64,000 bases of DNA from Candidatus Bathyarchaeia archaeon (GTDB taxonomy: Archaea > Thermoproteota > Bathyarchaeia > Bathyarchaeales > Bathycorpusculaceae): the NCBI GenBank assembly GCA_049521795.1, contig JBEKOM010000001.1:192001-256000 (forward strand), in the 5' to 3' direction. The position numbers and the translations under genes are program-made. Position 1 is the first letter of the stretch, and each line of letters starts with the position of its first letter. The notes under the pieces are model-generated. The model saw nothing but the letters and a program-made list of their open reading frames with translations. It was not told the origin of the DNA and did no database searches. This document shows positions 43,142-51,994 of this stretch, piece by piece.

Positions 43142-43606
43142 ATGCTGAGATTGACGTTCAGAATAGTGAGATATAGAACTGAATATCGGGATGTCGTCGT
43201 GGGGCTGTGGCGAACATGTAACCTAGTCGTTCCCCAGAATGACCCGGTGGAAGACATAGAGAAGAAGATGCATTTCCAACCGAATCTTTTCCTTATAGGC
43301 CTGTTGGATGGGAAGGTGATAGGTTCAATCATGGTTGGTTACGATGGTCACAGAGGTTGGATAAACTATCTTGCTATCACTCCTGAAGATCAGAGATACG
43401 GCTACGGCAGAAAACTGGTTCAAAAAGCCATAGATGAGCTAAAGAAGATGGGTTGCCAGAAGGTAAACCTGCAGATTCGCAGAAGCAATGACAAGGTGAT
43501 CGACTTCTACAAACATATTGGTTTCAAAGAAGATGATGTAGTCAGTCTAGGCATGAGACTCGCTGCAAGGCAACGTACACTTCGTGGCGGGCGGGGTGGG
43601 ATTTGA
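43142..43606 (+). CDS. GNAT acetyltransferase (YpeA-like)
   Basis: GYDGHRGWINYLA, QR.GYG, KVNLQIR..N..V..FY. Confidence 0.92.
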   Translation: MLRLTFRIVRYRTEYRDVVVGLWRTCNLVVPQNDPVEDIEKKMHFQPNLFLIGLLDGKVIGSIMVGYDGHRGWINYLAITPEDQRYGYGRKLVQKAIDELKKMGCQKVNLQIRRSNDKVIDFYKHIGFKEDDVVSLGMRLAARQRTLRGGRGGI

Positions 43607-43717
43607 ACCCACGACCACCAACTTAGGAGGCTGGTGCTCTATCCAGACCAAGCCACAATTCAGGGAGCACCCCCCACAAGAATAATGACCCAGCTATCCG
43701 TCCTGAGCTACCCGCCC
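43585..43717 (-). tRNA. tRNA-Arg(CCT) with encoded CCA and a 55-nt D-loop intron (~43643-43697)
   Basis: Mature form GGGCGGGTAGCTCAGGACGG^ATAGAGCACCAGCCTCCTAAGTTGGTGGTCGTGGGTTCAAATCCCACCCCGCCCGCCA; relaxed BHB with GGAC/GTCT central helix and two GGA bulges. Confidence 0.92.
43631..43644 (+). repeat. attL core
   Basis: Identical to 50129-50142; a second identity block 43694-43719 equals 50137-50162. Confidence 0.9.
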
Positions 43718-44640
43718 AATACATACAGCAACTACCAAGTATAGAAAAGCTTCTAAGACACCTCGAAGGAAAAGGCCGAAGCCCAAACACAGTAACAGCC
43801 TACACTAAAAACCTCAAAGCCTTAGCACTACGAGCAAACCTACAAGACCCCGAAGCAGTAGAAATAGAAATAGCACGCTACAAAAAGAAAAACGAAAGAC
43901 CCGCAACCAACAACTACAAATCCAAACTATGCGACTGCTACAATACCTACTGCAAATTCTACAAAATCCAATGGGAAAAAGCAATCTACACACCCGAACC
44001 CACAACCATACAACCACCATCCAACGAAAAGATACTAATGTTCGTCGCATCCGCCAAAGGCACACTAAGCCTAAAAATTGACATCAGCAACCAAACAGGA
44101 CTCAGACCCATAGAGGTTCAGGGCGAAAAAGGACTACACGCAAAGGACATTCACCCAGACCAAAAAACAATAACAGCCCGAATAACCAAAGGATGCAACG
44201 CAAGACCACCACTTCCAATATCGCCCGAACTTACCGCAAGACTCCAAACATACATAACAAAAAACAACTTACAACCCGACGACCTACTGTTCAAAGGAAG
44301 CGAACGACGGTACGGCGAACACTTCAGAACCTTCAGAAACAGACTAGCCAAAAAACTAAACGACCCAACAATCAAAACAATCCGACTCTACGACCTAAGA
44401 CACGCCTACGCCACAAGACAACTCCGAAGAACACAAAACGCCGAAACCGTCAGAATAATAATGGGCCACAAAAGACTAGATACAACACAAAAATACCTGC
44501 ACCTACTCGGACTAGACAACGGCGAATGGATAGTTGAAGGAACAACAGACAAAAAACGAGCACAAGAACTACTAACCGCAGACTTCACTTACCAACTGAC
44601 AACACCAGACGGAACAATGCTCTTCAAAAAACCGAAATAA
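43645..44640 (+). CDS. Tyrosine integrase, C-terminal fragment int(C)
   Basis: Frame is open from 43627 with no start codon until 44038; RSPNTVTAY, TGLRPIE (R), YDLRH (R), MGH, TQKY (Y). Confidence 0.9.
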   Translation, partial: RPSHNSGSTPHKNNDPAIRPELPAQYIQQLPSIEKLLRHLEGKGRSPNTVTAYTKNLKALALRANLQDPEAVEIEIARYKKKNERPATNNYKSKLCDCYNTYCKFYKIQWEKAIYTPEPTTIQPPSNEKILMFVASAKGTLSLKIDISNQTGLRPIEVQGEKGLHAKDIHPDQKTITARITKGCNARPPLPISPELTARLQTYITKNNLQPDDLLFKGSERRYGEHFRTFRNRLAKKLNDPTIKTIRLYDLRHAYATRQLRRTQNAETVRIIMGHKRLDTTQKYLHLLGLDNGEWIVEGTTDKKRAQELLTADFTYQLTTPDGTMLFKKPK

Positions 44641-44791
44641 AAACAACCTTCTTTTTCTCCTTTCAGTATCATGCTTAACCATTATGTCGCGCTCGCATCA
44701 CGCTCGCGCTCCAACTTACAAGAACTCAAAACAACAATAAGCAGAAAAGGCAGAGCAGTTAAGCGCGTGCGAACTAATCATTAAATACTGA

Positions 44792-45223
44792 ATGCAACAT
44801 ACTGCTCTTGGTGATTCCACGGAAGAACTGAAGAAGAAGTTTATAGTTGAAGAGAAACTGGATGAAAAACGGGTTACCAATTACGTCGAAAGAATTCTTC
44901 CCTTCTGCAAGATATCGAAAGATGGTATGGTAATAGCTGAAGCCAAAGATTTGAAATCACTGCAGAAAGTCAAGCTGGCTTTGGTAGCGAGATATCTAGC
45001 AAACTATCTCGACAAAAACATACCTGCTGAAGTCACTAACGAGGAATTAAGCACTTCTCTAATTATCCCAGAAGACCAGATTGCGGCAAGAATAGCCGAA
45101 CTAAGAGAAGACAAATTCGCAATTCCTGTGAAAAGAGGTTCGCATCAAGCAAACCCTCTGCAAATTGAAGAATTCATAGCAGAGTTAGAGAACACACACC
45201 AAAAGAAAGCGGAGAAACCTTAG
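44792..45223 (+). CDS. Hypothetical cargo protein with C-terminal wHTH-like region
   Basis: VTNEELSTSL......IAARIAELRE...; stop overlaps the next start. Confidence 0.7.
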   Translation: MQHTALGDSTEELKKKFIVEEKLDEKRVTNYVERILPFCKISKDGMVIAEAKDLKSLQKVKLALVARYLANYLDKNIPAEVTNEELSTSLIIPEDQIAARIAELREDKFAIPVKRGSHQANPLQIEEFIAELENTHQKKAEKP

Positions 45224-46014
45224 TGAATCTGAACGACTACTTTCCTAAAGATGAAGTCGAAGATGCCAAATACATAATTCATGAATTTCATGATAAACTG
45301 CTTCTTGATGACAAACCGAGCGACAAAACTGCATTGCTACTGTCACTCTACATGTGCTCTAACAAGAACAAGCAATCCGAGATTACGTACGGCGAAGTTA
45401 GGAAGCTATTCGTTACGCTTGGCAGAAAGGAAGACAATTTCGCAGTGAATCTGTTCAATGCAAAGAGAGAGGAGCTTGTGGATGAAAGACAAGAAGGGCG
45501 AGCAAAATTACTCAGCTTGAAAGTCAAGGGATTAAAAGAAGTAAAGGACACGTTAGGAGAAACGATTGGAGTCAAAACATGGCTGATTGAATCTGGTAAG
45601 GTTTATAGTGGAAAGAAACTTTTCCAAGAGATAGTAATGTCGAAGATTGGTTCTGCAGCCAAAATCTGTGACCCATATTGCGGAACTAGAATTCTCGAGT
45701 TGATAAGTGGAATTGAACACAAGTGCGCAATCTTTCTTTTGACACAAGCAATCGAACAAAAGGAATCCTTCAAAAGGGAGTTGATAGATTTCTCAAAGGA
45801 ATTTCAGCACTTGAAAATTGAGGTTAGAATTTTCAATGGAAAGACGTTGCATGACAGATACATAATATCGGATGGCAATTGCTGGTCTGTTGGTTCAAGT
45901 CTGAAGGATTTTGGGAATAAAGACACCACATTAACGAAACTGGAAGACGAAGTAAGATATGCCGTAGAAGAAATGTTCGACAAGAGATGGCAAGAAGCCA
46001 CTCCGTTTCCATAA
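45223..46014 (+). CDS. Cargo protein with C-terminal PLD-like (HDR-type) nuclease fold
   Basis: ICDPY...LLT...LHDRYII.D...WSVGSSLKDFG.K. Confidence 0.7.
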   Translation: MNLNDYFPKDEVEDAKYIIHEFHDKLLLDDKPSDKTALLLSLYMCSNKNKQSEITYGEVRKLFVTLGRKEDNFAVNLFNAKREELVDERQEGRAKLLSLKVKGLKEVKDTLGETIGVKTWLIESGKVYSGKKLFQEIVMSKIGSAAKICDPYCGTRILELISGIEHKCAIFLLTQAIEQKESFKRELIDFSKEFQHLKIEVRIFNGKTLHDRYIISDGNCWSVGSSLKDFGNKDTTLTKLEDEVRYAVEEMFDKRWQEATPFP

Positions 46015-46184
46015 ATCGCGCGCGCATAGCAGGAACATAATAGGCATTCGTTACACTTCTATCGTCTTTTCTGTTTTGTGCATTCTGTAAATAGAAAGGC
46101 GCGCTAGGCACAATTCAATGTTAACTATTAGAGAAGCAATCTGGCAGTGCAGTCTTTTTAACCAAGCTGGCTTTATTCTTTGTT

Positions 46185-47120
46185 ATGCTGTCAACGACTC
46201 ATTGTCTGCTCACTGGTGGAAGATGTGCTCATTTACCTATCTCTGTTGAATTGAACAGTTTCTTCGTATCCGAGCCTTACGATGAAGAAAGGCAACAAAG
46301 GGAACTCGCAATCAAGAAAGCACTAGAAGGTTTTAACTACATAATATCGGACCACAAAATCATGAATATTGCTCTCACATGCAAGATATGCCGTCAAATT
46401 CAATCATCAGAATTTGGAATCGTAGACATATCTGGATGTAATCCGAACGTCCTGATTGAATTAGGTATGCTGTACGGTTTCAGCAAACCGACAATTATAT
46501 TACTTAAGAAAAGCGAGCACCCTGAGTTTGACGTTCCATCGAACATTAAGGGAATCGAGCAAATTCGATACGAGGATTTTGACGAAATCACTGGAAAAAT
46601 AAAGAAAACCGTGAGCGTGTTTTTTGAGCTTCGGGCCAAAATGGATGAATACATAATTGACATGAGACCCATGCTTCAGCATCTCATACGGAGGCTTGAA
46701 ATTGAAATTGAAACGAGAAAATTGGTCGAAACTGGACTCAAATCTCAGATTATTGATTTCAAGACTCTTGGAAATGTTGGGGTTGTTATACTTGACAAAG
46801 GAACAAGAAATGGTGTCAAAACAGGCATGATTTTTGAGGTCTACCGCTCTGATAGAATCTCTATGGGAGACTATCTAGAAGAGAATGTTGGTCTAATCAT
46901 AGTGACATTTGCTCAAGAAAGAATTGCACAGTGTCAACCATTACAGATTGACCCAGACCTGCAGTTCTGGAAAGATGTTTCTTCAAACACTTTTGCCAAA
47001 AATGTCGTTAAGCCATACCCGAGTAAGACGTACAAAGATATTTCGATAGAGCAAGCAAAGACTATCCTAAGCAAAGCAGAAATATTGCACGAATACATGT
47101 ACTCTGGTAGGGTATGTTGA
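46185..47120 (+). CDS. Cargo protein: NDT/TIR-like nucleotide hydrolase fused to a FlgT-C-like beta domain
   Basis: FFVSEPY, IVDIS..NPNVLIELG......KP.IIL, VPSNI.G...IRY; then ILDKG...GVK.GMIFEVYR. Confidence 0.7.
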   Translation: MLSTTHCLLTGGRCAHLPISVELNSFFVSEPYDEERQQRELAIKKALEGFNYIISDHKIMNIALTCKICRQIQSSEFGIVDISGCNPNVLIELGMLYGFSKPTIILLKKSEHPEFDVPSNIKGIEQIRYEDFDEITGKIKKTVSVFFELRAKMDEYIIDMRPMLQHLIRRLEIEIETRKLVETGLKSQIIDFKTLGNVGVVILDKGTRNGVKTGMIFEVYRSDRISMGDYLEENVGLIIVTFAQERIAQCQPLQIDPDLQFWKDVSSNTFAKNVVKPYPSKTYKDISIEQAKTILSKAEILHEYMYSGRVC

Positions 47121-47509
47121 TGTCAGCTATGCTGAAGGGCAAAATTCTGAAAATCTTGAGTAGTTACAGCGTTGTCATCAGTCTTGGCAAGGAGCAAGGC
47201 GTTACAAAGGATATGAAATTCATTATTTATGAGGAAGGGGATATGATAAAGGATCCCGAAACTGGAGCAGATATTGAGAAATTGGAAATTCTGAAAGGAG
47301 AAGTGACTGTCACTCAGGTCCAAGAAAAAATCAGCGTTGCAGAAAGCTTTGCGATCGAAAAGAGAGTATACAATCCTCTTGATGTGGTGTACGCATACAC
47401 ATCTAGAACTGTCATAACAAAAGAGAAGAAACCGCTAACTGACGAAGCCATTGAAGCTCCTGCTCCTTCTAAAGTGAAAATCGGAGACCTTGTCAGGCAA
47501 ATTTCGTGA
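47114..47509 (+). CDS. Cargo protein: stand-alone FlgT-C-like domain
   Basis: VVISLG..QGV...M.F.IYE.G..I.DPETG, V.V.QVQEK.S, VKIGD.V; overlaps the upstream gene. Confidence 0.7.
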   Translation: MLMSAMLKGKILKILSSYSVVISLGKEQGVTKDMKFIIYEEGDMIKDPETGADIEKLEILKGEVTVTQVQEKISVAESFAIEKRVYNPLDVVYAYTSRTVITKEKKPLTDEAIEAPAPSKVKIGDLVRQIS

Positions 47510-47576
47510 TATCCTCACAACACGATGTTGAACAGGGTGCTCGAGCCAAGTCGTGCGCAACACCAATAACCATACT

Positions 47577-47738
47577 CTAAAAAGCCTCCAAAATCAGCCA
47601 GCCATCAACAAAAGACCAACGTCTCTTACGATAACCAGACAACTTAACCAAACGCTTCAAGGGAACAGACTCAATACGGCAACCCTGAGCACGAACAGAA
47701 ACAAACAGACGCACCTTGCCCAAAAGCACAGCCTTCAT
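47577..47738 (-). CDS. Small basic protein (53 aa) downstream of rep
   Basis: Manual translation MKAVLLGKVRLFVSV...DGWLILEAF*; starts 8 nt after the rep stop. Confidence 0.5.
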   Translation of the reverse strand: MKAVLLGKVRLFVSVRAQGCRIESVPLKRLVKLSGYRKRRWSFVDGWLILEAF

Positions 47739-47746
47739 AGCTACCG

Positions 47747-48724
47747 CTATTCGACTCGACGGATTACAGCGTCAGGATAGTTAGGTTGACCGAGCTCATC
47801 AAACTCATAGTCAACAAACCAAGGAACATAGTCAGGGTGACCGACATCCTTAACGATGTGACGCTTACCAACGTAAGCGCACGTACCCATTTCTTCACCG
47901 CAAGCAGGACAGACATCTTCGGACTCCAACCGCACACCCTTAAACTTACGATAACTCATCGAACCAAACCACGTGACAACGTGAAAACGCCCGACACCGA
48001 CCCGAATCGTCGCATGGTTCAACTGATACCAAGCCGTACCGAGAAGGGTCTTGCGTTTATCGTGAACCTTAACGAGAATGCCATCCTTTTCACCGCATCT
48101 ATAATTACGGTCAACAAAGCCACCGCAACCCTTGAAACAAGCCCTCTTGCAAGCACGGCACTTCTCTCGGCCAGCGACAGAAGCGAGAGTGTGATAGTGA
48201 GGACTCCAAACCAAACGCTGAAGGATTCTGTTAATGCGGAATCCGTGAAAAATCATGCAACCGCCGACAACGCCCCTGTCCAGCAAAGCCTTTCTAGCCT
48301 TCACTCGCAACGCGACCTCAGGCAAATGCCTATCAGCCTCAGGAAAAGACACCGTGACGTGCTCGGCAACACCTAGACCACGCCTCTCAGCCTCAATCAA
48401 ACGGCCCTCAATACTACGAGCCTCACGGAGAGCCCAACCGCGAATAAAGCAGACAGGACAGCTACTCTTATGACACCACAGATGCTTATGACGAACAACT
48501 ACCTTATCCGTACAATCTACCCCGCCAACGAAAACGCCTTTATGCCCTTCGACGTTCTTACAAACCTTGTAAGCAACCCAACGACCGCAAAAATCGCAAG
48601 TTTTAGCACCCCTGCCAACAGGCTGATAATTCTCATGCCCAACGTTGTCAACGGGCAGACACCAATACTTATTCTTCAAAATAGCCCTATTCAAACGCAG
48701 ACGCTCAGAAAAGGAACGGTTCAC
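47747..48724 (-). CDS. HUH rolling-circle replication initiator, Cys-rich
   Basis: HVTVS (motif I), GG..IFH.FR, WSPHYH (HUH), WYQLNH (catalytic Tyr), several CxxC. Confidence 0.8.
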   Translation of the reverse strand: MNRSFSERLRLNRAILKNKYWCLPVDNVGHENYQPVGRGAKTCDFCGRWVAYKVCKNVEGHKGVFVGGVDCTDKVVVRHKHLWCHKSSCPVCFIRGWALREARSIEGRLIEAERRGLGVAEHVTVSFPEADRHLPEVALRVKARKALLDRGVVGGCMIFHGFRINRILQRLVWSPHYHTLASVAGREKCRACKRACFKGCGGFVDRNYRCGEKDGILVKVHDKRKTLLGTAWYQLNHATIRVGVGRFHVVTWFGSMSYRKFKGVRLESEDVCPACGEEMGTCAYVGKRHIVKDVGHPDYVPWFVDYEFDELGQPNYPDAVIRRVE

Positions 48725-48748
48725 AGCCTCAACCGATACCAGCCAAAA

Positions 48749-48967
48749 TCACCTCAACTCTCCATTCAAATAACGATCAGGATGCTTCTCTACCCACTCC
48801 ACAAATCTCGCATCCTCTTCATCCTCCTCATCCATCTCACGCTCAAATCTCCTATAATGAGGACATTTGAAACACCTAGCCATGATTCCAAACTTTGCGT
48901 CTTTACGATACGAACAGAGAACGTCAGGCAAAAACGCGCAGGATAACAACGTTTCAGATGAAGCCAT
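48749..48967 (-). CDS. Small Cys-containing protein upstream of rep
   Basis: 72 aa, C..C..CFKC, acidic tract; co-oriented with rep. Confidence 0.55.
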   Translation of the reverse strand: MASSETLLSCAFLPDVLCSYRKDAKFGIMARCFKCPHYRRFEREMDEEDEEDARFVEWVEKHPDRYLNGELR

Positions 48968-49050
48968 TCCTTACATCCCTCTCTAAATCATTCCCTAATC
49001 AACGAATGAGATATATAGATATTCAAGGGTATACTCATAATTGAGGGACA

Positions 49051-49788
49051 ATGGTGAATCCTAACAATTCCAGCTACAAACAGTACAACCAACAACTGAT
49101 TCTAATGGCTCTTTTAGACGGTCAATGGCACCGAAACATGGAACTCAAAGAGAAAACCAAATTGACCGCTCGCACATTATCCAAGCATTTAGATGAATTG
49201 GAAGAAGAACTTCACTGGATAGAAAAGAAAAAAGATACTGAAAGCGGAAAATACCCATATCCCGTTCTCTACAAAGCCAACCCGACAACCATAAAACACA
49301 CAAAATTCGTCATGTCAATCCACGAATATGCGGACAACATAGAAACAACGTTAAAGGAAACAAAAGACCCCTTCCTAATGTTAGATAATTTTCACATGCT
49401 CAACCAACTAACCTTCACACTAATCTTGATGGCAGTTCAAAGTAACAAATACATGACTTGGAAACAAATAGATTATGCGACAAGCTTCTTTCTTTTTTCA
49501 CCTTACGAAATCTATACTCAAAACCTAGTTACAGCAATCACCAAAGCCATACAATCAGGCGCACGATTTGACGTCAAACAACTATTAGTATCTCAAGCGA
49601 AACGACGAAGAGTAATTCCCGAAGAGATTATCAAACCCTACGACGAACTGGGAATACTAACGCCGTATCCGACAAAGCACGTTACGGCAAAGCGTGACCT
49701 AATAACGCAAGACAAAAATCAAACTTACACACGCACTGGGAAGTCTCCTCGAAGGCATAAGCCTTTCCCTCATTTAAAAAAGAGGTAA
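49051..49788 (+). CDS. Winged-HTH regulator of the element
   Basis: LMALLDG.WH...ELK.KT.L..RTLSKHL.EL; divergent from the rep operon. Confidence 0.75.
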   Translation: MVNPNNSSYKQYNQQLILMALLDGQWHRNMELKEKTKLTARTLSKHLDELEEELHWIEKKKDTESGKYPYPVLYKANPTTIKHTKFVMSIHEYADNIETTLKETKDPFLMLDNFHMLNQLTFTLILMAVQSNKYMTWKQIDYATSFFLFSPYEIYTQNLVTAITKAIQSGARFDVKQLLVSQAKRRRVIPEEIIKPYDELGILTPYPTKHVTAKRDLITQDKNQTYTRTGKSPRRHKPFPHLKKR

Positions 49789-49870
49789 AGTTAGAAATCA
49801 TCCCGTCATGGAAGCCACACAACTTGAAAACAAAAGTGACTCGCTAGGCTTCCAATGACTAGAATCTTTT

Positions 49871-50041
49871 ATGAAAGGCATATTGCCTTCTCGTCGCGTC
49901 AACGAAAAAACAATGAAGGTCTGTGAAATGAGAATCGGAGATGTGAAAATGAGAACCCTTAATAGAACCCCAGAAGAAGTACGAGTCGCCCAGCTATGGG
50001 CAGAAATGGAACTATCAAAACTTTTGAAGGTGAAAGAATGA
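49871..50041 (+). CDS. Small protein (56 aa) coupled to int(N)
   Basis: MKGILPSRR...LLKVKE*; ATGA overlap with ATG 50038. Confidence 0.45.
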   Translation: MKGILPSRRVNEKTMKVCEMRIGDVKMRTLNRTPEEVRVAQLWAEMELSKLLKVKE

Positions 50042-50178
50042 CTACAGAAGAGACTGAAACACAGGGTAAAGCCACAAATCCAATGGACAATCAAGCAGAA
50101 AACAAAGAAGCTTTACTAAGGATAAAGTCTGGTGCTCTATCCGTCCTGAGCTACCCGCCCAACATTTCATTAGGCTGA
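50038..50178 (+). CDS. Integrase N-terminal fragment int(N), reading through attR
   Basis: MTTEE...RIKSGALS crosses the att core in the same codon phase as int(C); alternative start 49996. Confidence 0.75.
   Translation: MTTEETETQGKATNPMDNQAENKEALLRIKSGALSVLSYPPNISLG
50129..50160 (-). repeat. attR: displaced, intronless 5' part of tRNA-Arg
   Basis: Reverse complement GGGCGGGTAGCTCAGGACGGATAGAGCACCAG equals the spliced 5' 32 nt. Confidence 0.92.
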
Positions 50179-50264
50179 GACTAGTTTGATGCGGTGTAGA
50201 TTTTAACCTAGTGCCAGCCTCTGCAAAAAAGTTTAACTGCACACAAATATCAACCTTTATCGCT

Positions 50265-50375
50265 GCGGGGGTACCCGAGCCAGGTCTAAATAGGCGGGCC
50301 AGAAGCCTAAGACAAGGGGGAGGACTTAAGATCCTCTGGCGAAGGCCTCCGTGGGTTCGAATCCCACCCCCCGCA
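50265..50375 (+). tRNA. tRNA-Leu(TAA) with 26-nt D-loop intron (50290-50315)
   Basis: GCGGGGG acceptor strand, GAGGA-CTTAAGA-TCCTC anticodon arm, long variable arm, BHB-type GTCT-AAA-TAGGC...GCCTA-AGAC-AAG. Confidence 0.92.
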
Positions 50376-50425
50376 CCTTTTCATTACGCGCTGGAAGAAC
50401 CCACTTGTCACTTCGGAACAATCGG

Positions 50426-51994
50426 TTATGGGTAGTGTTGTAGGAAGTGGTTTGCGAGAATTATTGCGTCTAAGACGTTTACTATGTTGTCGCTGTTCAG
50501 GTCTGCGTTCGGGTTCCAAGCTGGATTGCGCGATGTTAGAAGGAAGGAGTCAGCTAATGTTGCGGCATCCAATTGGTTCACTGTTCCGTCGCCGTTGATG
50601 TCGCCTAGAATGCTTCTAAGATCGAAGGTCAAGGATGCTGAGACATTTTGTCCAAGATAGTTTGAGTTTACGTGCACAGTGTAGTTGCCTAATTCTGTTA
50701 GATCTGTGAGAACAAATGTGGAGTTGTATGTGCCCTGTGTGTCTGTGAAAGGAGCTGCAGTGACGACAGTGTCATTCTTGAGATTTTGAACTTCCATCGT
50801 CACTGACACTTGTGGCACGGGGGATCCGTAGTACGTCAGGTTTCCCTGTACGAGTATCTGCTCGCCTACGTGATAGATCGTCCTGTCCGTTCCTACTGTT
50901 ATTTGGAGCACTGTGATTTTGTAGAAGCCGTCGACCGAAGCAGTCTGGTTGACGGCATTGCCAAGCGTGTCCTCAATCCTTGTGTCGTAGAGGTGCAGTG
51001 GACAAGTCAAAGCGTTCGGAAACAATGCTTGCATCGTCGCGTTGAACTGGATTATTGCCACTGCTCCAGAGCCTTGTGGCCACGGGGGATGCAATGTTCC
51101 GTTTACATCGGGATTCACAACAATGCGAAGCTGAATGTAAGTGAGGTTAACGAGTTGCGTAAGCGATGTTCCCTGGTTTGGCGCAGCTCCGTATGAAGGC
51201 AACCACGGTCCCTCCCAAACGTTCAATACTTGCAGTATCGTACTGTTGTAGCCCAGCTTGAATTCGAAGCCTACGGCTTCCCAGCCAGGGTCTAGGCTGT
51301 TGACTTTGACGCTTATGTTGAAGACTTCACCGACGTTTGATGCAGTGTACGTTGGTGGGTCAACCGAGAAGAACGGGGTCATGACGGGCGGAGACCAGTT
51401 CAGCGTGTAGGTTCCGTTCAGGGTTGTAAGCGGAATTGATTTTGCGCTTATGTTACCCGCAATCGCTTCGCTGAGGCCCAAAGCGGATGACACACTGCCG
51501 CGAAAGGGGGGTGTCTTTCCAACTCTCATGGTCAACGTTGCCAGCGTAAGTTTTCCTTCAGGCGGAAAATTCGCTGTGGTTACATTAACTGGTGCGTATC
51601 CGTCACCAACTGACGCGAGGTTGTCCCTCCAAGTCTGCGCGTAGTCAGCGTAACCGCCAGTGTTGTTGAGTGCCAACTTTACGTTCCACAGGTTGCTCCA
51701 TTTAAAGACGGGCGTTACCGTGTGGAACAAGACTTCTTGTATGTCCTGGCAACTCAGCAATGTTGGATCCCATGTTAGGCGAAATTGGACACCGACGAAC
51801 CCTGTGATGTTGGCGATCGTAACATTGACCGTGAACGTGCTGCCAGAAACCATAGGCGGCGACAGCAACACGATGTCCGAGGGGTCCACAAACACCTTTG
51901 CCCCTTCCGCCGCACGAATTTGAAGCACGTTTGCGAAACTGAGAAGCGCGACCGCAACCATTAGCACTGAGAGAACTCTTACCATACTCTTCAT
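50426..51994 (-). CDS. Secreted surface protein: two cohesin-like domains, Ig-like domain, dockerin
   Basis: Signal peptide; F.V.V...F.L.(W/Y)D/N...L twice; GDINGDGTVN.LD...ADLNSD.IVN.LD. Confidence 0.8.
   Translation of the reverse strand: MKSMVRVLSVLMVAVALLSFANVLQIRAAEGAKVFVDPSDIVLLSPPMVSGSTFTVNVTIANITGFVGVQFRLTWDPTLLSCQDIQEVLFHTVTPVFKWSNLWNVKLALNNTGGYADYAQTWRDNLASVGDGYAPVNVTTANFPPEGKLTLATLTMRVGKTPPFRGSVSSALGLSEAIAGNISAKSIPLTTLNGTYTLNWSPPVMTPFFSVDPPTYTASNVGEVFNISVKVNSLDPGWEAVGFEFKLGYNSTILQVLNVWEGPWLPSYGAAPNQGTSLTQLVNLTYIQLRIVVNPDVNGTLHPPWPQGSGAVAIIQFNATMQALFPNALTCPLHLYDTRIEDTLGNAVNQTASVDGFYKITVLQITVGTDRTIYHVGEQILVQGNLTYYGSPVPQVSVTMEVQNLKNDTVVTAAPFTDTQGTYNSTFVLTDLTELGNYTVHVNSNYLGQNVSASLTFDLRSILGDINGDGTVNQLDAATLADSFLLTSRNPAWNPNADLNSDNIVNVLDAIILANHFLQHYP

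Follow-up and report, generated by a model that had tools for sequence, protein, structure and literature searches.

A cryptic Xer-like element that probably writes an in-frame, spliceable insert into a single intronless tRNA-Arg(CCU) gene of Bathyarchaeia

The stretch of DNA analyzed here, called the window below, comprises 64,000 nucleotides of a peat Bathyarchaeia genome (G000; assembly GCA_049521795.1, contig JBEKOM010000001.1, positions 192,001 to 256,000) and contains an integrative element of about 6.5 kb inside a tRNA-Arg(CCU) gene. The D-loop of this gene is interrupted by a 55-nt insert, and the antisense strand of the insert lies in the open reading frame (ORF) of the element's integrase, which is found in two pieces, int(N) and int(C), at the opposite ends of the element (Table 1). 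We propose, with a probability of about 0.72, that this cryptic element, whose integrase is Xer-like, writes an in-frame and spliceable insert into the single intronless tRNA-Arg(CCU) gene of its host. Thus the same nucleotides would encode a protein linker when read on one strand and a tRNA intron when read on the other.

The left and right attachment sites (attL and attR) share two blocks of identity, which are separated by the insert at attL and abut at attR, where the host copy of exon 1 is located. The int(C) frame is open from 43627 to its stop at 44638-44640, and its first ATG, GTG or TTG is found at codon index 137 (position 44038), in line with a sequence-only reading of this DNA that had described a frame without a start for about 135 codons. 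The ATG of int(N), at 50038, lies about 6.4 kb to the right of attL with a GGTGA 6 nt upstream. As that reading had stated, int(N) crosses the att block as SGALS in phase with attL. At attR, its frame continues into the insert-free host exon 1 and stops at 50176-50178. We joined the two parts by coordinates in a script: int(N), the insert and int(C) form a single frame of 366 codons, the length of about 366 aa predicted earlier, and the join devoid of the insert meets a stop at codon 50, the early frameshift stop that had also been predicted. The joined gene consists of the 35 codons of int(N), a 14-nt copy of the tRNA D-stem and D-loop, the 55-nt insert, the exon 1 copy and the two-domain recombinase, the plus sense of the insert providing about 18 codons of integrase linker. 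The recombination site is inside the integrase's own 5' coding region, and we have little doubt that the integrase is split with a frame running through att.

For comparison, integrase homologues were collected among 2832 candidates, of which 341 passed E <= 0.001; apart from the window's own 200-aa product, the 120 listed homologues are 61-80% identical. We fetched 80 metagenome loci for the comparison of inserts and hosts. The phase of the inserts was examined in about 112 loci plus the window, and the analysis kept the 73 in which an exon-2 motif, an exon-1 motif and a frame running open to a LEGKGR-like anchor were all present, any locus lacking one of the three being dropped. Inserts that had the same length and were at least 90% identical were counted once, which gave 48 non-redundant sites. 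A scan of genome contigs gave 3 loci only, and the recombinases retrieved from a viral contig collection were all distant (short pieces, no more than 49% identical), the integrase family itself not being found there.

We then consider the insert as an RNA. ARAGORN called no tRNA on the window with the insert in place; the tRNA-Arg(CCU) is missed because the 55 nt interrupt the D-loop, and once they were removed in silico, a standard 78-nt tRNA-Arg(cct) with an encoded CCA was called. In the tRNA sense, the window insert folds into a G-U-rich hairpin of 10 bp, in which 43685-43694 pair with 43647-43656; it is flanked by AU^A bulges and by a short central helix, in which 43698-43700 pair with 43644-43646. 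All 45 non-redundant inserts are hairpins between repeated GGAU, and all 45 fold more stably in the tRNA sense, with a mean z of -2.0 versus -0.9 in antisense, both measured against shuffles. Many of the stem pairs are G-U, which would give A-C on the opposite strand. The plain minimum free energy fold of the pre-tRNA was uninformative (z -1.39).

A relaxed register fits 62 of 73 distinct sequences, or 49 after collapsing; the 11 sequences outside it, L062 and L004 included, mostly have a variant 3' flank (CGCAA or CGUAG). On the 5' side of this register, exon 1 ends with ..ACGG AU, followed by one unpaired nucleotide and then by the stem; on the 3' side, the four nucleotides zYGG separate the stem from A[U/C]^A GAGC. 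The stem begins exactly 1 nt past GGAU and ends exactly 4 nt before AU-AGAGC in 49/49 sequences, all of which have two 3-nt bulges at fixed register. The first stem pair is likewise formed in all of them (AU 21, GC 17, CG 6, UA 3, GU 2), and pairs 2 to 7 are formed in 48, 48, 44, 43, 43 and 41 of the 49. Each position from pair 1 to pair 7 shows 5-10 nucleotide combinations, a covariation that backs the inner helix beside the 5' bulge. Six shifted-register controls reached at most 27/49, save one control at one position (34/49); the double-shift control merely slides along the same stem. This relaxed register replaced two registers specific to the window, GGAC:GUCU (exact mature length) and CGGA:UCUG (2 nt more), both of which fail in the larger type I group.

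The archaeal splicing endonuclease cuts after the second nucleotide of the bulge. With cuts at this place on both strands, the product is the mature tRNA without intron, exact to the nucleotide. G000 has two genes for EndA-domain proteins (PF01974 above cut-off, 99.4 and 72.2 bits) and introns in other tRNAs as judged by ARAGORN, and the attL tRNA is the only tRNA-Arg(CCU) gene found in this genome, which is 98.75% complete. From these features, we consider it fairly probable that the insert is spliced as an intron with a relaxed bulge-helix-bulge (BHB) motif.

Inserts are also found in the absence of the element. A pattern search retrieved insert-bearing tRNA-Arg(CCU) genes in 13 of 401 Bathyarchaeia genomes, all of them in the window's family. 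In three genomes of one genus, g33, which share a homologous upstream flank (G203, G165 and G369), exon 1 is followed by host sequence with no integrase, and likewise in G370 and in one G378 contig; in G010, from the window's genus, the insert stands at an otherwise empty site on two contigs. The next-best exon 2 matches in G203, G165, G369 and G370 are tRNA-Arg(UCU) or tRNA-Arg(GCG), so the insert-bearing gene is the only CCU gene found in these four genomes. In the former integrase frame, stops or a wrong length class are found in the inserts of g33 (54, 60 and 59 nt) and of G370 (35 nt); the frame is still open in the G378 and G010 inserts and is thus broken in four of the six genomes with integrase-less inserts. 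The hairpin and the register are retained in these orphan inserts. Once the integrase is gone, the frame decays and the RNA features and tRNA exons stay, the behaviour expected of a resident intron. Sites also appear to be used more than once. The attR insert of L050 is nearly identical to the attL insert of L036, and the presence of an insert at attR beside the host flank in L050 and L081 suggests that an earlier element left its insert and that the site was used again.

Two further features of the insert-bearing gene were noted. Many insert loops (L018, L034, L037, L083, L094 and others) contain a degenerate copy of the tRNA T-stem, variable region and anticodon stem (ACCCACGACCACC-like). 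The insert core tracks host variants, CCCTC hosts having CCCTC-like cores, and attP, the attachment site of the element, is colinear with the tRNA gene from the insert core to exon 1. This core could be the remnant of a longer att site, or it could be an integrase-binding site. The second feature is a TATA-like motif, TTTTCTATAC, at 43739..43748 (minus strand), which corresponds to -31 to -22 of the tRNA 5' end, lies within int(C) codons and is the antisense of its conserved P-S-I-E/Q codons. Of 39 non-redundant loci, 11 have a match to T[AT]TA[TAC] at -26 or -27. Since the sequence originally upstream of the tRNA is lost upon integration, this TATA-like box may be the new promoter of the tRNA; judged from the consensus match, it is a candidate replacement promoter.

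Several observations argue against splicing, the first of them drawn from the central helix. Its C-G pair and its G-C or G-U pair are present in 49/49 sequences, but the helix is not a canonical 4-bp one, having an invariant A-G mismatch (49/49), and G19 faces C, U, A and G in 20, 8, 20 and 1 of the 49 (28/49 canonical). A strict brute-force BHB scan, in which 4/4 canonical central pairs were required, yielded no family-wide solution, and the 3' bulge has no adjoining outer helix. Exon 1 is mismatched to the host acceptor strand in L018 and L055, as read by eye. AGG codons might be read by the tRNA-Arg(UCU) that G000 also has, and the CCU gene may therefore be dispensable. Among the public runs listed as containing the stretch, there is no RNA run.

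Of these points, the central helix, the failed strict scan, the UCU tRNA and the missing RNA run would suit the alternative that survives best, namely that the insert is delivered by the element and is no intron: integration would then inactivate a dispensable tRNA-Arg(CCU), the UCU tRNA would read AGG, and the hairpin would have some other role, for instance in the architecture of the recombination site or in controlling antisense transcription that enters int(C). Likewise, the T-stem/variable-like core, tracking host variants as it does, could be a protein-binding site. We nevertheless regard this alternative as unlikely, given that the inserts without integrase persist in the only CCU gene found of G203, G165 and G369 and keep hairpin and register there as the reading frame decays, that the stem relies on G-U pairs existing only in the tRNA sense, that its start and end are in exact register in 49/49 sequences, and that the exons remain intact.

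In homologues, the sequence-only reading had proposed to look for att inserts of frame-preserving length. Such inserts were found: 35 of the 45 non-redundant inserts, representing 12 lengths, are in phase with int(N) and open. Where exon 1 is read as IRxEL, the in-phase lengths (43, 52, 55, 58, 61, 64, 67 and 70) are all 1 mod 3, and where it is read as SVLSY, they (42, 63, 66 and 69) are all 0 mod 3. The non-redundant sites without an insert are in phase with the int(N) GALS frame in 3/3 cases. At a single locus, a matching phase with no stop in 18 codons is estimated to occur by chance about once in 7, and the case for frame selection therefore rests on the homologues. int(N) is conserved at every attR or junction found, ending with LL..K.GALS, and a GAGGTGA-like (Shine-Dalgarno-like) motif precedes it wherever its start falls inside the printed stretch. 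Among 27 contigs, window included, that contain attL and a second site, the phases of int(N) and int(C) match in 22.

A pair of loci is instructive in this respect. L067, devoid of insert, and L071, with a 55-nt insert, have sister integrases (98% local support), and downstream of exon 1 their DNA is homologous save for one 1-nt indel about 35 nt in. The intervening stretch is in different frames in the two loci, and the recombinase is in frame in both; such a compensating indel makes sense only if translation enters from int(N).

The frame is not kept everywhere, and this weighs on the other side. Ten of the 45 inserts are out of phase, eight of them in the second phase (7 open, 1 with a stop) and two in the third (1 open, 1 with a stop), and int(N) and int(C) are mismatched in 5/27 contigs (L030, L047, L081, L082 and L085). 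On a quick FastTree integrase tree of 60 rows, used only for counting changes against shuffled labels, the out-of-phase states are scattered tips (9 changes versus a shuffled mean of 9.6), a pattern that short-lived defects would give. Insert type and insert length required 13 and 25 changes, with shuffled means of 19.5 and 39.0; they follow the tree only partly, indicating frequent reassortment of insert and integrase. The earlier claim that selection preserves the insert phase thus gains support from the 35/45 count and the L067/L071 indel, and these out-of-phase inserts and contigs are exceptions to it.

The second-phase loci (L030/L032, L065, L077/L078, L079, L080, L086 and L089) have an att block reading GWCS. 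Their int(C) frame stays open across the entire antisense tRNA, in most loci as far as an ATG or GTG located at the tRNA or within it, and gene-caller products of this type are P0003, P0036, P0053 and P0056. Judged from these frames, second-phase proviruses may keep a complete integrase ORF with a tRNA-antisense N-terminus.

The L067/L071 indel, the phase kept with int(N) in 35/45 inserts, the conservation of int(N) and its Shine-Dalgarno-like motif and, in the window, the lack of any ATG, GTG or TTG until codon index 137 also bear on a second explanation, according to which int(N) is not part of the enzyme and the integrase, starting in or after att at an internal or non-standard start, is not split. 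They make it very improbable, although int(C) alone holds both recombinase domains, many relatives' inserts begin with an in-frame GTG or ATG (products of about 330 aa: P0004, P0005 and P0008), and the 8/45 second-phase inserts give int(C) a frame that remains open across the entire antisense tRNA. Homologues starting downstream of the tRNA at a non-standard codon were not found.

Since attR has no insert, either the host site or the element site was insert-free before integration. Unoccupied sites were found in two genomes of the same genus (G001 and G002) and in one of the same family (G018): all have an intronless tRNA-Arg(CCU) and the attR-side flank of the window, which is 93% identical to the G001 and G002 empty sites. 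In public metagenomes, one contig (X4, depth 258.8) joins 43630 to 50129 and another (X2, depth 2.4) joins 43634 to 50133, both skipping 6498 nt. The joint of these empty sites can be placed anywhere within 14 (X4) or 10 (X2) shared letters, which correspond to the left block. Among occupied sites, L025, L028 and L029 have an identical insert and integrase and differing tRNA 3' flanks, and L030, L047 and L052 have one common host flank and different inserts. The second site of the 27 contigs is an insert-free attR followed by a non-integrase flank in 22 (near-duplicates L042/L043, L083/L084 and L035/L037 included), an attR with a D-loop insert beside the host flank in 2 (L050 and L081) and a tandem junction in 3 (L054, L094 and L095).

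In L035, L037 and L071, the attR copy of exon 1 is interrupted by a different, host-specific intron, absent from the attL copy, indicating that, at attL, the element copy has taken the place of the entire 5' part of the tRNA. One integration event therefore removes one intron and installs another. This host-specific intron is about 28 nt long, near the acceptor/position-8 region, and its allele is also the loose end of run X3, at 43644.

Uninterrupted ORFs running from int(N) through the att block, the insert (where present) and exon 1 to the recombinase occur in L038, L054, L095 and L098. Three of the four sit behind another integrated element, L038 having a tandem junction plus a terminal insert-free attR, and L098 matches L095 across the junction stretch; we read all four as tandem-array junctions, or as unresolved context, and not as proven free attP. 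No circular form or back-joint was seen in the metagenome-run contigs, which say nothing on its absence, and no terminal repeats suggesting a circle were seen in any contig examined.

We hold it highly probable that the insert is borne by the element's attP and delivered to an intronless host tRNA. Least credible is the converse, in which the intron was already in the host tRNA, attP was intronless, crossover took place in the 26-nt right block and the open frame is a coincidence: the 26-nt exact repeat would suit a normal att core, G010, a member of the window's genus, carries a D-loop insert at an empty site, and such a coincidence has odds of about 1 in 7 at a single locus, but the intronless junction stops at codon 50 and leaves the int(C) frame startless, intronless empty sites exist in G001, G002, G018 and the X2 and X4 contigs, inserts travel with integrases across hosts, 35/45 inserts are in phase, and host-specific introns are at attR only. 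What the sequence-only reading had observed is confirmed and what it had inferred is supported. Its idea that intron, tRNA exon and integrase are co-encoded holds as far as one frame runs through all three; it is amended in that the insert belongs to the element's attP, the host tRNA being intronless before integration.

The preferred reading, that of an element delivering a spliceable insert, can be put as a series of steps. The attP of the element recombines with the intronless host tRNA, the 14-nt block to the left of the insert being the probable crossover region. At attL the host receives the insert and exon 1 of the element, the host's own exon 1 stays behind int(N) at attR, and the integrated integrase loses its promoter, its start codon and its first 35 codons. 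In the tRNA sense, the base of the hairpin and the flanking GGAU repeats would form the relaxed BHB motif, and the host splicing endonuclease would cut after AU in each bulge, yielding an intronless mature tRNA. Only frame-keeping lengths would persist as long as the integrase is alive. As for the orphan inserts, we infer that the element was removed by a deletion or by recombination on the right-hand side of the insert; what stayed would be a host intron, the frame of which would decay.

The int(C) product matches Pfam Phage_integrase (PF00589, residues 145-293, E 7.6e-13), and its N domain is SAM-like, with a weak PF02899 match. In 31 sequences, residues R160, K188, R258, H259 and Y290 do not vary and the conservation of H281 is at least 90%; these six are the probable catalytic residues. 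No match to PF16795 (Phage_integr_3) was obtained, even at a maximum E of 10. Its solved relatives by sequence are all Xer-type (4a8e_A, E 1e-10; 5hxy_A, E 8e-5; 1a0p_A; 5dcf_A), the best being the XerC-like chain 4a8e_A. Archaeal XerA and XerC-like recombinases, the closest relatives with a solved structure, likewise have a SAM-like N domain followed by a catalytic domain. Xer proteins resolve chromosome dimers at dif and are not known to have an att inside their gene or to target a tRNA.

By its architecture, this integrase resembles the "suicidal" (type I) integrases of SSV1, SSV2, pTN3 and pT26-2, whose attP is in the ORF and whose integration into a tRNA gene splits it into int(N) and int(C), as described in the accessible part of a review (PMC8371274). 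The present attP is likewise within the integrase ORF, with int(N) and int(C) at opposite ends of the element. According to the same part of that review, suicidal integrases are tied to PF16795, have a single origin and come from hyperthermophiles (PMC8371274). In contrast, the integrase described here lacks PF16795 and has Xer-type relatives, and its hosts, by their run labels, are from peat, soil and sediment metagenomes. It also differs from SSV1, SSV2, pTN3 and pT26-2 in that att is the 5' part of the tRNA (D-arm and acceptor) and not the 3' part, in that only a 35-codon leader is removed and int(C) keeps both domains, and in that att is interrupted by a translated insert of 42-99 nt. Thus it seems to work like a suicidal integrase outside the sequence family of these enzymes, and the SSV1-type label of the sequence-only reading stands for the self-splitting architecture and falls for the sequence family.

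Relaxed BHB motifs (hBH / HBh') were reportedly described in Thermoproteota tRNA introns by Marck and Grosjean in 2003 and by Sugahara in 2008. The present inserts share with such non-canonical introns two 3-nt bulges on opposite strands beside a long inner helix, a position outside the anticodon, the restoration of a standard cloverleaf upon removal and a genome with two EndA homologues. They differ by a central helix of 2-3 canonical pairs plus the invariant A-G, by the lack of an outer helix, by an antisense strand that is protein-coding and by the degenerate copy of part of the tRNA that they contain.

The transfer of an intron by an attP was proposed by Sugahara et al. in 2012: in the passages of that paper available to us, an intron-containing attP hands its intron to an intron-free Caldiarchaeum tRNA-Thr (PMC3293823), and the accessible part of the review restates this intron-vector idea as a proposal (PMC8371274). 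As in that model, an intron-free host site (attB) here meets an attP with additional sequence, the tRNA gains an intron and its 5' fragment is displaced (PMC3293823). The 2012 case, as far as those passages describe it, is a single locus with an intron at 24/25 and a recombinase, inferred to be pNOB8-like, that does not overlap the tRNA (PMC3293823). In contrast, there are dozens of related elements here. Their insert is part of the integrase frame, which constrains it, and stands in the D-loop just before A21, and both empty sites and orphan inserts occur. What an intron vector should show in that model is found here: the insert is in the element att, is absent from the unoccupied host site and remains in the host tRNA without the element. 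The Randau and Soll hypothesis, as cited in the accessible passages of PMC3293823, holds that tRNA introns protect against integration. Here the reverse is seen, since the element installs the insert and insert-bearing sites were integrated again (L050 and L081). Krupovic et al. (2019) report, in the part of the article available to us, integrations into intron-containing tRNA genes and one split SSV1-like integrase in Thaumarchaeota (PMC6563490); the att sites of thaumarchaeal elements in Table S2 of that article may include comparable cases. PMC10848311 mentions Bathyarchaeia virus integrases with no att detail. In the full-text literature searched, which leaves subscription journals and supplements outside it, we found no description of an intron translated as part of an integrase, and no paper other than Sugahara 2012 joining tRNA introns and attP.

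It has long been asked how archaea came by their many non-canonical tRNA introns, and the idea of element-carried tRNA introns had, in the accessible full-text literature, rested on the one 2012 locus. New tRNA introns may arise from elements of this kind. We would give even odds to the broader claim that this family is a working generator of non-canonical tRNA introns, a single short segment belonging to the recombination site, linking the integrase in frame and forming a spliceable intron on the opposite strand, with each integration writing an intron and with loss of the element through recombination to its right fixing it in the host lineage; if this were true, integrases would be a major and directly observable origin of these introns. 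Empty intronless sites, occupied sites, tandem junctions, re-used sites and orphan inserts across several species are natural replicates of every stage, making the hypothesis testable by ordinary experiments. The overlap of constraints is also unusual, one strand being held to a protein frame and the other to an RNA processing motif, with compensatory indels visible, and self-splitting integrases are extended to a Xer-like lineage with hosts from peat, soil and sediment metagenomes.

Table 1. Coordinates, in the window, of the features of the element and of its attachment sites
Feature	Coordinates	Strand	Evidence
tRNA-Arg(CCU) gene	43585-43717	-	Rfam tRNA match, 40.7 bits (partial)
tRNA-Arg(CCU) exon 2, D-stem 3' strand through encoded CCA; host-derived	43585..43640	-	Rfam, ARAGORN
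55-nt D-loop insert, putative intron	43641..43695	-	folds, frame join
tRNA exon 1, 5' 22 nt, element-borne copy; plus strand reading IRPELPA	43696..43717	-	
attL left identity block, 14 nt, = 50129-50142; probable crossover region	43631..43644		empty-site joints
attL right identity block, 26 nt exact, = 50137-50162	43694..43719		
int(C), 337 codons: SAM-like N domain and tyrosine-recombinase catalytic domain	43627..44640	+	
int(N), 35 codons, ATG to end of att block (..SGALS)	50038..50142	+	
attR: left block joined straight to host intronless exon 1, then host flank	50129..50162		
Cargo region between int(C) and int(N)	44641..50037		
Cargo ORF	44792-45223		
Cargo ORF	45223-46014		
Cargo ORF, possible TIR domain	46185-47120	+	borderline match
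Cargo ORF	47114-47509		
Cargo ORF, Cys-rich, without family match	47747-48724	-	
Cargo ORF	48749-48967	-	
Cargo ORF, weak winged-helix match	49051-49788		
Small ORF ending at int(N) start	49871-50041		

Between the two parts of the integrase, the element carries a few ORFs, and the G+C falls to 0.40-0.45 across 44-50 kb. The ORF at 46185-47120 matches the CAP12/Pycsar effector TIR domain (PF10137) with 24.8 bits for a cut-off of 24.7, and its neighbours gave sub-threshold matches only; it may be a defence-type cargo gene.

To the left of the tRNA, a GNAT acetyltransferase ORF (43142-43606, plus strand; PF00583, E 4.7e-18) has its stop about 20 nt inside the tRNA 3' end. To the right of attR, a second tRNA at 50264-50377 (plus strand) is a Leu(UAA) from the reading of its anticodon arm, with about 20 additional nt between the D-stem and the anticodon stem; it was not called by ARAGORN or Rfam, and its position next to the tRNA-Arg is conserved in relatives. 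Finally, 50424-50613, which lies at the 5' end of a minus-strand ORF (50426-51994), has at least 10 further matches of 70-85% identity within G000, as well as matches in genomes of the same genus; these suggest that it belongs to a repeated gene family or to a mobile sequence.

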